The translations under genes and the position numbers were made by a program. The notes below the pieces were generated by a model. The model made no database searches. It was not told where the DNA came from and saw only the letters and a list, made by a program, of their open reading frames with translations. From Escherichia coli (GTDB lineage Bacteria; Pseudomonadota; Gammaproteobacteria; Enterobacterales; Enterobacteriaceae), in assembly GCF_003018235.1 (NCBI RefSeq), contig NZ_CP027439.1: a DNA stretch of 64,000 bases, one strand, 5' to 3'. This document shows, piece after piece, positions 2,002 to 13,105 of this stretch; position 1 is the stretch's first letter, and each line of letters begins with the position of its first letter.

Positions 2002-2033
2002 ATCACCGGAGCCCCTGCTCCGGTGATTTTTTC
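2002..2033 (+). terminator. Rho-independent terminator after RND gene
   Basis: GC hairpin caccggagc/gctccggtg followed by T-run (attttttc) right after stop codon. Confidence 0.6.
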
Positions 2034-2925
2034 AAGCGGTATAGCGTAACGCATCAATCATTAAAGCAAAGGCAGGAGGATGCTGATTCCGGCTGGGATA
2101 GTAAAGATAATAGCCCGGAAATACCGGGTTCCACTCATGCAATACCTCAATCAATGCTCCTGATTCAAGCTGCTGTTTGACCATATCTTCAGGGACAAAC
2201 GAAAGCCCAAAGCCTGCTTCTGCCGCATCGATTCTTTCAGAGAGATTATTAAAGGTAAGCTGACCGTCCACCTTCACCTGAAGGGGTTTTCCATCCTTTT
2301 CAAATTCCCAATGGTATAGCCCTCCCAGCGTCGGAAGCCGCATGTTAATACAACTGTGACGCTGAAGGTCGTGTGGGGTATCAGGAATACCATAATGTGT
2401 AAAATAGTCGGGTGATCCCACCACGACCAGCCTCAGGTCCGGTCCAATGCGTACCGCAACCATATCTTTATCGAGGCTTTCCCCAAGGCGAACGCCCGCA
2501 TCAAATCGCCCTTCAACGATATTCACAAAGCCATTATCCACCACCAGTTCAACATTAATCTCAGGATACTCGCGCAGGAAAGGTTTAAGTTTCGGCCACA
2601 CCAGACTTTTCGCCGCATGCTCTCCGGCAGAGATACGGATATTCCCGGCAGCAATGCCATTAAGCTGCACCAGTTGTTCCAGCTCTTGTTCCAGCTCTGT
2701 CAGGCGAGGCTCCAGACATGCGATGATCCTCTCCCCTGCTTCCGTGGGTGCCACGCTGCGCGTGGTGCGGGTCAGCAGACGGATATTAAGCCTGGCCTCC
2801 AGCGCCTTCATGGCATGGCTCAGGGCTGACTGGGAAACCCCGAGTTTAGCCGCCGCCCGAGTAAAACTTCTCTCCCGCGCCACGGCCAGAAATAGCTGAA
2901 GTTCATTGAAATTTTCTTTAAGCAC
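2032..2925 (-). CDS. LysR-family transcriptional regulator
   Basis: N-terminal HTH ([35 protein letters not shown]) plus LysR substrate-binding domain; 297 aa. Confidence 0.9.
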
Positions 2926-3067
2926 GCGATTTCCCTTAATGTTTTGGCTAGTAACTTAATCATGAGAAGGGTTCATAGACGCAATCATTTTAGCCTCGTT
3001 ACTCTCAATAATCACAGTTGATACACTTCTTCACAGTTAAATTCTCCAATTGCTCAGCAGGTTTATA

Positions 3068-3838
3068 ATGAAGGTTTTAATTGTCGGTGCGACCGGCAGT
3101 ATTGGTCGTCATGTTGTAGAAATGTCGATAGAAATGGGACATCAATCGAAAGCCCTGGTCCGTTCCCCAAAAAAAAGAAAATTGTTGCCACAGGGAATTG
3201 AGATTGTTTATGGCGACGTCTCTGTCCCGGAAACATTGACCGGCATTGGAGATGATATCGATGCCGTTATTTTCACCCTGGGATCAGATGGATTAGGCCG
3301 CATTGGTGCTCGGGCAGTGGACTATGGCGGGGTGAAAAATATTCTTCAACAACTTAAGCATCGGCGAGTCAGAGTTGCGCTGATGACTGCCATCGGCGTG
3401 ACAGAAAGAGAAGGTTCGTATAACCGCCAGACGGAAGCGCATGACTGGAAACGTCGTGCGGAACGCCTGGTTCGTGCCAGCGGTCACCCCTATACCATCG
3501 TCAGGCCTGGTTGGTTTGATTACAACAAACCGAATGAACAACAAATCGTCATGTTACAGGGAGACAGACGTCATTCAGGCACACCGATCGATGGCGTGAT
3601 TTCCCGTAAACAAATAGCCAGAGTACTGGTTAGCGCATTAACAGACGATGATGCTAAGAATAAAACGCTTGAACTCATTGCCGAAAAAGGGAAAGAGCAA
3701 CAGAATCTCACCCCACTTTTCTCAGCCCTGCAACAGGACCGCGCAGATAAAAACGATGGTATTCATGATTTAAACAACATGCCCATGGACTCAGAGCCTG
3801 AGTGCGTTGTTCGTGATCTTAATGCAATGACGCAATAA
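3068..3838 (+). CDS. NAD(P)H-binding oxidoreductase, NmrA-like/atypical SDR
   Basis: Rossmann motif MKVLIVGATGSIGRHVV at N-terminus; start chosen at internal ATG of ORF 3050..3838. Confidence 0.75.
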   Translation: MKVLIVGATGSIGRHVVEMSIEMGHQSKALVRSPKKRKLLPQGIEIVYGDVSVPETLTGIGDDIDAVIFTLGSDGLGRIGARAVDYGGVKNILQQLKHRRVRVALMTAIGVTEREGSYNRQTEAHDWKRRAERLVRASGHPYTIVRPGWFDYNKPNEQQIVMLQGDRRHSGTPIDGVISRKQIARVLVSALTDDDAKNKTLELIAEKGKEQQNLTPLFSALQQDRADKNDGIHDLNNMPMDSEPECVVRDLNAMTQ

Positions 3839-3848
3839 GATAAATATA

Positions 3849-3878
3849 AAAAAGGCGGTATATTCTACCGCCTTTTTT
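3849..3878. terminator. Bidirectional hairpin terminator between convergent genes
   Basis: aaaaaaggcggta-tatt-ctaccgcctttttt, stem flanked by A-run and T-run. Confidence 0.65.
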
Positions 3879-3880
3879 AA

Positions 3881-10600: not shown

Positions 10601-10630
10601 AAATATTCCTCTGTTTGTAATACAGGTGGC

Positions 10631-10924
10631 TTACGCGATCGTCTGCACGACGCTCATGCAGGAGAGATCGATAATGTCTTTGATTTTCTCTCCGAGGGCC
10701 AGATGATCAGGGGCGCGCATATAGCGCTCCCAGTCCTCCCGGGAATCGAACTCGGCAATCAGCACCACTGCCTGGGTTTCTGACCAGTCGAGTGTCTTTT
10801 CAACGCTGAAGGCTTTGATCCTCGGGACGATGGAGGGCAATTGGCGAAGGATGTCCACTACAGCAGACAGCTCGGCCTCAGTCTTACCTGGATATGTTTT
10901 GCCTATGAAAATATGTTTCAACAT
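10631..10924 (-). CDS. Dabb-family stress-responsive alpha/beta-barrel protein
   Basis: 97 aa; size and sequence pattern typical of Dabb domain proteins co-transcribed with oxidoreductases. Confidence 0.6.
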   Translation of the reverse strand: MLKHIFIGKTYPGKTEAELSAVVDILRQLPSIVPRIKAFSVEKTLDWSETQAVVLIAEFDSREDWERYMRAPDHLALGEKIKDIIDLSCMSVVQTIA

Positions 10925-10935
10925 TCGGGGCTCCT

Positions 10936-11997
10936 TCAGGCATTTTTCAGCGTAGACATGTCAATAGAGAAACGATATTTGACGTCACCCTTTTCCAGGC
11001 GGACATAAGCTTCATTAATCTCCTGGATGCCGATGACTTCCACATCGGATGTGATGTTGTGCTGACCGCAGAAATCGAGCATTTCCTGCGTTTCAGCAAT
11101 CCCGCCAATAAGTGACCCGGACAGGCTACGGCCGCCAAAAATAAGGCTGTAGGCTGAGACATCAATTTTGTCAGCAGAAGCGCCAACCAGCGTCAGATTA
11201 CCTTCCGGATGCAGCATATTGAGGTAAACATTCAGATCATGTGGAGCGGATACGGTATCGAGAATAAAATCAAACGTACCGGCGTGAGCCTGCATCTCTT
11301 CCGGGTTTCGTGACACCACTACTTCATGAGCACCAACACGGAGTGCATCTTCTTTCTTGGATGGAGATGTGGTGAAGAGAACCACATGTGCGCCCAGGGC
11401 GCGGGCAAATTTTACGCCCATATGTCCTAGTCCGCCCAGACCAACGATACCCACTTTCTGACCGGCCTTTACACCCCAGCGACGGATAGGGGAATAGGCA
11501 GTGATGCCCGCACATACCAGCGGAGCAACACCTGCCAGATCGAGATTTTCCGGTACCTGAAGAACAAAATGCTCATCCACCACAATGCTTTCGGCATAAC
11601 CACCGTAGGTCACCGGAGCAGTACCGTAATTATCCGGTGAGTTATACGTCAGCACCTTGGTAGGGGAATACTGTTCACGATTCGCTTTACAGTGAGGGCA
11701 GGTTGGATCGGCATCGACCAAGCAGCCCACAGCGACAATATCGCCAGCCTTGTGTTTTGTCACCGCCGTGCCCACCGAGATAACCCGGCCTACAATTTCA
11801 TGACCCGGAACAATCGGGTAAATGGTTGGCATGGCGCTGCCGAACTCATCACGCACATGGTGAATGTCAGAGTGGCAAACCCCGCAGAACAGAATATCAA
11901 TCCGGACATCGTGCTCATTCGGATCACGACGCGGGATCGATAACGGTGCAAGTGGGGATGTTGCGGACGTGGCCGCATAAGCTTTGGTTACGTACAT
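10936..11997 (-). CDS. Zinc-type NAD(P)-dependent alcohol dehydrogenase
   Basis: GVCHSDIH, GHEIVGRV, GLGGLGHMGVK motifs; paralog of 3881..4936. Confidence 0.9.
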   Translation of the reverse strand: MYVTKAYAATSATSPLAPLSIPRRDPNEHDVRIDILFCGVCHSDIHHVRDEFGSAMPTIYPIVPGHEIVGRVISVGTAVTKHKAGDIVAVGCLVDADPTCPHCKANREQYSPTKVLTYNSPDNYGTAPVTYGGYAESIVVDEHFVLQVPENLDLAGVAPLVCAGITAYSPIRRWGVKAGQKVGIVGLGGLGHMGVKFARALGAHVVLFTTSPSKKEDALRVGAHEVVVSRNPEEMQAHAGTFDFILDTVSAPHDLNVYLNMLHPEGNLTLVGASADKIDVSAYSLIFGGRSLSGSLIGGIAETQEMLDFCGQHNITSDVEVIGIQEINEAYVRLEKGDVKYRFSIDMSTLKNA

Positions 11998-12145
11998 TCT
12001 TTGCTCCCGTTGATCCCGGCCAGAAGTGCCGGGAAGTGCGACTACTATAGGGAGCTAATTATCAATATAATAGATAGTAAATCATTGAAGCTGTTGCAAG
12101 TATTAATTGATAATAATGTGAGTTATCCTGATAGGGAAAGGCATC

Positions 12146-13105
12146 ATGCTGACAAAAGACATTCGCGCGATAGATATACTGGCGAAAGCTGTGGAACTGG
12201 GCAGCCTGCGCCAGGCCGCTCTCGCAAAAGGGGTGACCTCACAGGCCGCCAGCCAGACACTCGCTCAACTTGAAGACTCACTGGGGGTGCGCCTTCTGCA
12301 CCGCACAACTCGCAGCCTCTCTCTGACAGAGGAGGGCAGGCAACTGCTGGAAGCCACACAACCGGCACTGGCGGTACTGGACCGTGCCCTTACGCGTGCA
12401 CGGCAGGCAAAGGACGAGGTTGCCGGTCCGTTGCGTATTGTTGGTCCCCGATCGGCCTTCACACCGGTTTTATGGCCAGTCATTGACGAATACTGCCGGC
12501 GCTACCCGGACGTTCAGCCAGAAGTGCAGCTTGATGACAACGTGGGGGACTGGGTTCTTGATCGAGTGGACGTGGGGTTTCGGTTTGGTTCTCCGCCTGC
12601 AGAGGGGCTTATCGCACGCCCGCTGTTCCGTGCGCAACTGATTATCTGTGCATCACCGGCATACCTCCGCACGCATGGTGTACCCCGTTCGCTGGAGGAA
12701 CTAGCGTACCACCGCTGCAGCGTCTTTCGCCATCCGGGAACGGATGCAATATTTCCCTGGTACGTAAATATAGGGGGAGAAATCCAGACACGAGAGTTTC
12801 CTCCAACCGTGGCAACAAACAGCACAGACATAGAAGTTGAGGCCACGCTGACCGGACAGGTCATCGCACAGCTCTCATCATTGTCCTCAGCTGCGCTGAT
12901 CCGCGCAGGCCGTCTTGTGCCCTTACTAACAGAGCATGTGGCCAGCCACCTTCATCTGTACGCTTACTACGGGAGCCGCAAAGCGCAGCCGCTGCGGGTC
13001 AGAAAATTTATCGAGCTCGCCGTCGAACGGTTAACGGACAACCGGGAGCTGACTCTGACTACAGATGAACTGCAGACGTATTCTGCTGAAAGGCTGAACC
13101 AGTAA
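12146..13105 (+). CDS. LysR-family transcriptional regulator
   Basis: 319 aa, HTH plus effector domain; divergent from the ADH gene. Confidence 0.9.
   Translation: MLTKDIRAIDILAKAVELGSLRQAALAKGVTSQAASQTLAQLEDSLGVRLLHRTTRSLSLTEEGRQLLEATQPALAVLDRALTRARQAKDEVAGPLRIVGPRSAFTPVLWPVIDEYCRRYPDVQPEVQLDDNVGDWVLDRVDVGFRFGSPPAEGLIARPLFRAQLIICASPAYLRTHGVPRSLEELAYHRCSVFRHPGTDAIFPWYVNIGGEIQTREFPPTVATNSTDIEVEATLTGQVIAQLSSLSSAALIRAGRLVPLLTEHVASHLHLYAYYGSRKAQPLRVRKFIELAVERLTDNRELTLTTDELQTYSAERLNQ

Follow-up and report, generated by a model that had tools for sequence, protein, structure and literature searches.

A probable mosaic of independent LysR-type regulator and oxidoreductase cassettes on an Escherichia IncF conjugative plasmid

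Contig NZ_CP027439.1 of Escherichia coli (RefSeq assembly GCF_003018235.1) carries, near the start of the 64,000-nucleotide (nt) stretch analysed here and called the window, three genes for LysR-type transcriptional regulators (LTTRs), each beside oxidoreductase genes. We interpret this region, with a probability of about 0.85, as a mosaic accessory island of an Escherichia IncF conjugative plasmid, made up of horizontally acquired, independent LTTR/oxidoreductase cassettes and shaped by transposon-associated rearrangement. Observations in support include the following: each segment has a different closest relative, and the junctions carry scars, namely a truncated short-chain dehydrogenase/reductase (SDR) gene, a stub with a terminal inverted repeat (IR) and a fragment of a tnpA gene. 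An earlier note on this DNA had derived the modules from segmental duplication; that origin is contradicted by the age of the paralogs, the non-collinear arrangement of the homologous pairs, the presence of a single DNA repeat and the existence of closer orthologues in other genera.

Genes of the region were identified from a listing of open reading frames (ORFs) and from Pfam scans. These agree with the gene content described previously, including all coordinates: three LysR regulators beside oxidoreductase genes, two zinc-dependent alcohol dehydrogenases (zinc ADHs; ZnADH1 and ZnADH2), SDRs, an iron-dependent ADH (Fe-ADH), an NmrA-like protein and a Dabb protein. The reported linkage to a plasmid backbone likewise holds, the remainder of the window being Escherichia IncF plasmid DNA with replication (RepB/FIB), partition and tra genes. 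Passed over in the earlier note were the truncated SDR ORF, the Tn3-family IR stub with its tnpA fragment, the separation of the ZnADH1 operon from that of the first regulator and the continuation of the island to the left. Megablast searches against plasmids and E. coli genomes divided the region into segments with different relatives: segment A (1-5405), cassette B (6264-9518) and cassette C (9519 to about 13180), with the stub and the tnpA fragment between A and B. A contig of E. coli assembly GCA_022441185.1 matches window 936-14600 at 100% identity, and the complete order A-stub-tnpA fragment-B-C was found again, at 99.2-100%, in several E. coli draft assemblies.

Segment A is 88.5% identical at the nt level, over window 2-5405, to Klebsiella IncHI1B/FIB plasmids (NZ_CP141562.1, NZ_MT570100.1), with which the window shares the order RND permease-LysR-NmrA-like-ADH-SDR. 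The gene order of the Klebsiella plasmids runs RamA-like, AcrA-like, AcrB-like, LysR, NmrA-like, ADH, intact SDR, DapH-like acetyltransferase and divergent LysR, so that their ADH and SDR are the distal genes of an acetyltransferase-headed operon facing a further LysR. Unlike the window, these plasmids keep the SDR intact, followed by the acetyltransferase and the further LysR, and they lack cassettes B and C. The LysR1 gene of the window (2032-2925, minus strand; HTH_1 and LysR_substrate domains) is divergent from, and paired solely with, the gene of the NmrA-like protein, an atypical NAD(P)H-binding SDR (3050-3838, plus strand; NAD_binding_10, E 9e-36; NmrA, E 7e-14). The true start of the latter is likely to be 3068, which gives 256 aa, the length that gene callers also give, and the intergenic region spans 124-142 bp. 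LysR1 is 95.6% identical in amino acids (aa) to its Klebsiella plasmid copy, and the NmrA-like protein is 90.6% identical to a Klebsiella copy of 256 aa.

The right-hand part of segment A belongs to a different operon. ZnADH1, a CAD/YahK/Ahr-type zinc ADH of 351 aa with ADH_N and ADH_zinc_N domains (gene 3881-4936 within ORF 3881-4978, minus strand), is convergent with the NmrA-like gene and does not share the operon of LysR1; it is 95.7% identical to the Klebsiella plasmid ADH, which there stands in the operon LysR|DapH-like-SDR-ADH. Next to it lies a 3' remnant of a PRK06940-type SDR gene (5014-5405 within ORF 5014-5463, minus strand), about 130 C-terminal codons that lack the Rossmann N-terminus, with a partial Pfam match covering adh_short_C2 positions 142-236 only. 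This SDR stub is 98.4% identical to residues 148-276 of the intact 276-aa Klebsiella SDR, and the homology to the Klebsiella plasmids stops at 5405, inside the SDR gene. ZnADH1 and the SDR stub appear to be the tail of a fourth LysR module whose head and regulator have been lost. We suggest, with modest confidence, that ZnADH1 is either poorly expressed or driven by an internal promoter that escaped recognition. The LysR downstream in the Klebsiella plasmids was also considered as a relative of LysR2 and LysR3, which would have made the tail of A and cassette B duplicated modules; this was ruled out, as it is just 27% identical to LysR2. The best chromosomal relatives of ZnADH1 are found in Citrobacter, at 91% in C. 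farmeri, where the gene stands alone, and at 83% in other Citrobacter, within a different LysR|SDR-CMD/cupin-ADH operon.

Segment A ends at a Tn3-family terminal stub of 168 bp (5406-5573, minus strand). It carries a single 38-bp IR, GGGGTCTGAGGGCCAATGGAACGAAAACGTACGTTAAG (5536-5573, minus strand; outer end 5573), and a terminator-like hairpin at 5501-5484 on the minus strand, just upstream of the SDR remnant. A sequence with 100% identity to the stub forms the end of a Tn3-family element in Salmonella pCFSAN017963_01, where it adjoins genes for a PD-(D/E)XK nuclease and a resolvase. Abutting the outer IR end is an internal fragment of a Tn3-family tnpA gene (5574-6263, minus strand; about 700 bp, with the match reaching 6263 or 6273), which represents mid-gene sequence (about aa 286-519), carries no IR and was identified by its nt match, at 93-94%, to transposase genes annotated as Tn3-family in more than 1000 plasmids. 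The ORF at 5512-6306 has no Pfam hit and was rejected as a real gene, being the frame of this fragment. The remnants do not form an intact Tn3-family transposon, since there is one IR and the tnpA fragment is internal only and lies outside it; no second copy of the IR was detected within 8 mismatches in the window or in sibling loci. A Tn3 transposon carrying segment A between two such repeats was accordingly rejected for the DNA searched. In E. coli GCA_050785745.1, window 1-5573 and window 5575-14600 are widely separated on a 105.9-kb contig, and other sequence flanks the IR on its outer side. An inversion or another IR-associated rearrangement is suggested by this, or possibly an assembly break; because the outer flank differs, the Tn3 IR would be a real and rearrangement-prone boundary.

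Cassette B comprises LysR2 (8542-9498, plus strand; HTH_1 and LysR_substrate), divergent from an operon of a YqhD/BdhA-type Fe-ADH (7260-8408, minus strand) and SDR2 (6366-7193, minus strand), both assigned by Pfam, with a terminator-like hairpin at 6329-6306. This cassette occurs in several other settings. It is found alone, at 98% nt identity, in plasmid pEA4_88 of E. albertii and in an island on the chromosome of E. coli AH19B041; these two copies have in common a slightly longer unit of 3563 bp. Together with cassette C it is present at 99.6% identity in the E. coli plasmid pSCU-111-1, where window 1-5399 is missing. A complete three-gene version resides among unrelated core genes in the chromosomes of Salmonella bongori and Klebsiella michiganensis, at 76% nt identity and with protein identities of 82-83% (LysR), 87% (Fe-ADH) and 87% (SDR).

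The wider distribution of cassette B was followed by a scan for chromosomal Fe-ADH genes in one genome per species (GTDB), which gave 80 loci and a best match of 83% in Aeromonas. A LysR2-like gene (63-76% identical) stands divergent from the Fe-ADH gene in 27 of them, and a PRK06940-type SDR gene follows the Fe-ADH gene within about 0.6 kb in about six. Genes of A or C in the module arrangement were seen beside the Fe-ADH gene at none of the 80 loci; two loci hold distant single homologues, a LysR3-like gene (60%) in one and a ZnADH1-like (53%) plus a LysR1-like gene (56%) in the other. Scattered and unlinked modules in related genomes were what the earlier note had named as speaking against its reading, and this is largely the distribution observed. 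B occurs without A or C at all 80 chromosomal loci and in four further contexts, C stands alone in Pantoea and ZnADH1 recurs in other contexts in Citrobacter. The three are linked in one lineage of E. coli plasmids, and solely there.

The 133-bp region between LysR2 and Fe-ADH (8409-8541) holds the putative operator and the promoter of cassette B. Alignment of 25 of the 27 loci with a LysR2-like gene, those with an upstream gap below 400 bp (Aeromonas, Rhodocyclales, Chromobacteriaceae, Comamonadaceae, Azomonas and Moraxellaceae), revealed a candidate operator, the inverted repeat TTTACA-N9-TGTAA(A/C) beside the lysR start, which is kept in all of these loci as well as in S. bongori and K. michiganensis and reads TTTACATCATTTAGTTGTAAC in the window. 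A -10 element (TATAGT or TAAAGT) and a TAGTT(C/G)-like -35 element 17 nt upstream are conserved across the 25 loci, and dyad and promoter show hardly any base changes between Aeromonas, Betaproteobacteria and S. bongori. In the classical LTTR layout, the regulator binds a dyad that overlaps its own promoter and, once induced, activates the divergent operon. The intergenic region of cassette B corresponds to this layout. Of the three segments, an operator could be defined for B alone.

Cassette C consists of LysR3 (12146-13105, plus strand; HTH_1 and LysR_substrate), divergent across 148 bp from an operon of the CAD/YahK-type ZnADH2 (10936-11997), the Dabb protein (10631-10924) and SDR3 (9824-10600; 258 aa), all three on the minus strand and assigned by Pfam, with a terminator-like hairpin at 9807-9785. 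Its closest relatives are chromosomal genes of Pantoea: ZnADH2 is 96-97% identical in aa to Pantoea proteins, and the chromosome of P. piersonii carries LysR|ADH-Dabb followed by an SDR remnant, 86.7% identical in nt over window 10328-13180, with LysR3 at 91% and Dabb at 86% aa. The right limit of the cassette is set by the end of the Pantoea homology and the left limit only by the end of the homology of cassette B. The SDR that follows Dabb in P. piersonii is a remnant of 74 aa (L087:11460-11684), and the SDR3 of the plasmid is intact; the plasmid would therefore keep a fuller cassette C than this chromosome. In pSCU-111-1 an IS100-like insertion of the IS21 family lies between SDR3 and Dabb (L001:13392-15193) and the Dabb C-terminus is trimmed, to 82 from 97 aa; another sibling plasmid has an IS100-like insertion of the same family inside SDR3 (L088:11829-13630). 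Because of these insertions, cassette C appears to be undergoing erosion in some lineages.

Terminator-like hairpins follow each operon of the region. As judged from gene order and these signals, B and C appear to be complete self-contained units, each with a divergent promoter region and a terminator, and the LysR1|NmrA-like pair would be a third such unit. Could the units share one chromosomal donor? A single donor was considered and rejected: no candidate donor matches at the nt level, and the best protein matches come from Aeromonas (83%, Fe-ADH), S. bongori and K. michiganensis (87%), Pantoea (96-97%, ZnADH2) and C. farmeri (91%, ZnADH1, in a different context).

The enzymes and regulators of the island both resemble and differ from their nearest known counterparts. 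The Fe-ADH resembles the group III Fe-ADHs of the BdhA type, NADPH-dependent aldehyde reductases such as E. coli YqhD and Thermotoga TM0820, in fold, in the GGGS cofactor motif and in the metal ligands D195, H199, H269 and H283; its best structural matches are TM0820 (1vlj, 382 bits) and YqhD (1oj7/4qgs, 210 bits). It scores below the curated NCBIfam cut-off of the YqhD equivalog (NF011717; 244.1 versus 645 bits) and differs from YqhD in adjoining an LTTR gene and sharing an operon with a PRK06940-type SDR gene; yqhD itself is controlled by the AraC-type regulator YqhC. The two zinc ADHs resemble YahK and Ahr (YjgB), CAD-like NADPH aldehyde reductases, in their ADH_N and ADH_zinc_N domains and in the GHE and GLGGLG motifs, the GHE motif of ZnADH1 being canonical. 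Among solved structures, YahK (1uuf) comes closest to ZnADH2 (394 bits), and Ahr is the best NCBIfam model for both enzymes, which remain below its cut-off (NF047908; 305.9 bits for ZnADH1 and 300.5 for ZnADH2 versus 470). They differ from YahK and Ahr in standing in LTTR-type operons and, for the ZnADH2 subfamily, in lacking the third structural-zinc cysteine. SDR2 alone among the enzymes exceeds an NCBIfam subfamily cut-off, that of PRK06940 (NF005395; 424.6 bits over residues 1-274 versus 280), and it has the catalytic YQISK motif. The three regulators are like classical LTTRs in domain composition (HTH_1, E 2e-15 to 2e-23; LysR_substrate, E 4e-29 to 3e-36; all above the Pfam cut-offs), in length (about 300-320 aa) and in being transcribed divergently from the leading gene of an oxidoreductase unit. 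They differ from the nearest NCBIfam model, YafC (NF040888), at 153.6, 185.9 and 157.8 bits for LysR1, LysR2 and LysR3 (154-186 bits) against a cut-off of 470. Aldehyde or carbonyl reduction is a plausible role, the nearest characterised relatives YahK, YqhD and TM0820 being broad NAD(P)H aldehyde reductases or butanol dehydrogenases; as no equivalog cut-off is reached, it is plausible at family level only.

Resemblance between the modules is real and makes it worth considering that one LysR-oxidoreductase module underwent segmental duplication in place and that the copies then diverged and had genes replaced. The paralogy of LysR2 and LysR3 noted earlier stands: the shared motif is exact (LGVRLFHRTTRSMSLTEEG in LysR2, LGVRLLHRTTRSLSLTEEG in LysR3), and the proteins are 52% identical over 314 aa. 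This motif falls in the helix-turn-helix region, where the LysR family is most conserved. ZnADH1 and ZnADH2 are likewise 52% identical, the SDR stub and SDR2 88% over 117 aa (75% nt), B and C are both laid out as LysR divergent from ADH...SDR, and their intergenic regions are in part similar by eye. LysR1 is more distant, at 32% to LysR2 and 26% to LysR3, and SDR2 and SDR3 share 38% over 82 aa only. But the homologous pairs join different modules (LysR2-LysR3 link B and C, ZnADH1-ZnADH2 link A and C, SDR stub-SDR2 link A and B), and pairwise comparison of the module proteins disclosed no collinear duplicated block. DNA similarity is confined to a single stretch, the sole 300-nt repeat detected in a search of window 1-14600 (5029-5328 versus 6378-6677, 75% nt), which corresponds to the SDR stub and SDR2. 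Orthologues in other genera, at 82-97% aa, are far closer than the paralogs within the island: the LysR of S. bongori and K. michiganensis matches LysR2 at 82-83% but LysR3 at 52-53%, and that of Pantoea matches LysR3 at 91% but LysR2 at 53%. Because chromosomal copies keep this cross-distance of 52-53%, the split between the B and C regulators would be older than the spread of either cassette. For each zinc ADH, separate relatives with at least 72% identity occur in distant phyla, and the two belong to subfamilies with different structural-zinc motifs: ZnADH1 has the canonical C..C..C.......C lobe, and the ZnADH2 subfamily lacks the third cysteine, with a degenerate motif, CPHCKANREQYS, at residues of about 100-114 and a serine in place of the fourth cysteine in its enterobacterial clade. 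The Fe-ADH and zinc ADH folds are unrelated, and modules are present singly in chromosomes. A local duplication is on these grounds very improbable, and the island reading of the earlier note survives in its family-level theme of NAD(P)-dependent carbonyl and alcohol oxidoreductases, while its segmental-duplication origin falls with the non-collinear pairs and the one 75% nt repeat.

Other explanations accept separate origins and question the function. The cassettes might be hitch-hiking fragments of catabolic or biosynthetic pathways, for instance of alcohol or diol use or of secondary-metabolite tailoring, that share no common function. Every cassette comes with a regulator and an origin of its own, no enzyme meets an equivalog cut-off, the nearest solved relatives of SDR2 are hydroxysteroid and polyol dehydrogenases, albeit weakly matched, and the relatives of the CAD family include terpene and alkaloid alcohol dehydrogenases. 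Against this, the cassettes hold reductase-type enzymes only, and Pfam identified in them no transporter, kinase, aldehyde dehydrogenase or other gene for downstream catabolism; the nearest characterised bacterial relatives, YahK and YqhD, are broad aldehyde reductases, and the efflux, flavodoxin, CMD and aldo/keto reductase genes of the wider island are typical of electrophile and stress cargo. We regard such pathway fragments as unlikely, though conceivable. The region could also be decaying cargo, inactive remnants that are retained through backbone linkage alone, as one SDR is truncated, one operon lacks its head and regulator, IS100/IS21 insertions occur between or inside the cassette C genes of sibling plasmids, and the region is rearranged between assemblies. 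This seems doubtful at best, for the remaining ORFs are full length, the Fe-ADH, both zinc ADHs, SDR2, SDR3 and the NmrA-like protein retain intact motifs for cofactor binding and catalysis, the operator and promoter of B agree with the chromosomal consensus, and several E. coli assemblies share the island with 99.2-100% conservation. Protein identity to distant copies is far above nt identity (96% aa versus 87% nt for C; 91-98% aa versus 88.5% nt for A), which for this reason fits purifying selection on working genes.

Several points weigh against the interpretation as a mosaic of independent, working cassettes. The genera named above are relatives of the sources, and the direct donors are not among them, the best chromosomal matches being 76-87% nt. 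The left boundary of C and the mechanism that formed the junction between A and the stub are deduced from the points at which homology stops. None of the enzymes reaches the Ahr or YqhD cut-off, so substrate assignment stays at family level. A promoter scan returned 9 sigma-70-like sites versus 13.1 in shuffled controls; it was not used as evidence and cannot settle the expression of ZnADH1. A full-text literature search found nothing on these cassettes, and no experimental data were found.

The island extends to the left beyond the window start. The window opens with the gene of an AcrB-like RND efflux permease (44-1996, plus strand; Pfam ACR_tran, E 7e-246), which belongs to segment A and of which the C-terminal 650 aa remain, the gene being cut by the window start; in sibling contigs the permease is full length at 1044 aa, with AcrA-like and RamA-like genes upstream. 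Its identification as OqxB was rejected because AcrB-like NCBIfam models score far higher. The leftward DNA (L101:10930-20894) encodes, besides the AcrB-like and AcrA-like proteins, a RamA-like small AraC activator, a YdgH/BhsA-like protein, a third CAD-type ADH, a flavodoxin, a CMD protein and an MFS transporter; aldo/keto reductase genes are found in the wider island as well. The Klebsiella IncHI1B/IncFIB plasmids have RamA-like, AcrA-like, YdgH/BhsA-like, ADH, flavodoxin and CMD genes to the left in common with the E. coli lineage. Taken together, the leftward genes make up a plasmid-borne ramA/acrAB-like efflux module common to these Klebsiella plasmids.

On the other side of the island, between cassette C and an IS3-family element (14618-15831, plus strand; HTH_Tnp_1 and rve in two frames), lie two ORFs of 114 and 162 aa (13726-14070 and 14109-14597, both plus strand) that have no Pfam or NCBIfam match; the pair also occurs at 99.9% identity in the E. 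coli O55:H7 plasmid NZ_CP038392.1. The G+C content is 0.41-0.45 in window 18001-26000 and 0.36 in 42001-44000, the rest of the plasmid window having about 0.50-0.58.

For the mosaic, we propose the following course of events. Independent LTTR-reductase cassettes would have been acquired separately and joined at Tn3-family remnants, and a fourth LysR operon would have lost its head and regulator at the junction with a Tn3-family end. Each LTTR would bind an operator in its own divergent intergenic region, in B the candidate repeat described above, and upon binding a small-molecule inducer would activate the adjacent operon of NAD(P)H-dependent reductases. The enzymes might then turn aldehydes, ketones or quinone-type electrophiles into alcohols of lower reactivity. 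The analysis establishes the gene families, the intact catalytic motifs, the boundaries of the mosaic, the separate origins and the conservation of the operator; inducers, substrates and the state of ZnADH1 expression are inferred. We further speculate that the island could be more than a chance mosaic, namely a selected and transferable tolerance island against reactive aldehydes and other electrophiles, such as plant or host lipid-derived aldehydes or aldehyde biocides. This idea, which we consider rather improbable, builds on the occurrence of at least four independent LTTR carbonyl-reductase cassettes beside RamA-like/AcrAB-like efflux, further ADH, aldo/keto reductase, flavodoxin and CMD genes. 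Under it, related operators of LysR2 and LysR3 might permit cross-talk between the cassettes.

Altogether, the region is an ordinary plasmid cargo mosaic that leaves the current understanding of plasmid biology unchanged. It does offer a correction: clusters of paralogs on plasmids can mimic local duplication though they grew by convergent accretion, with unrelated cassettes joined at the scars of transposons. The presence of a RamA-like/AcrAB-like efflux module beside reductase genes on these plasmids may bear on tolerance phenotypes, and LysR|Fe-ADH(-SDR) emerges as a widespread, uncharacterised regulon whose well-defined putative operator makes it easy to study.

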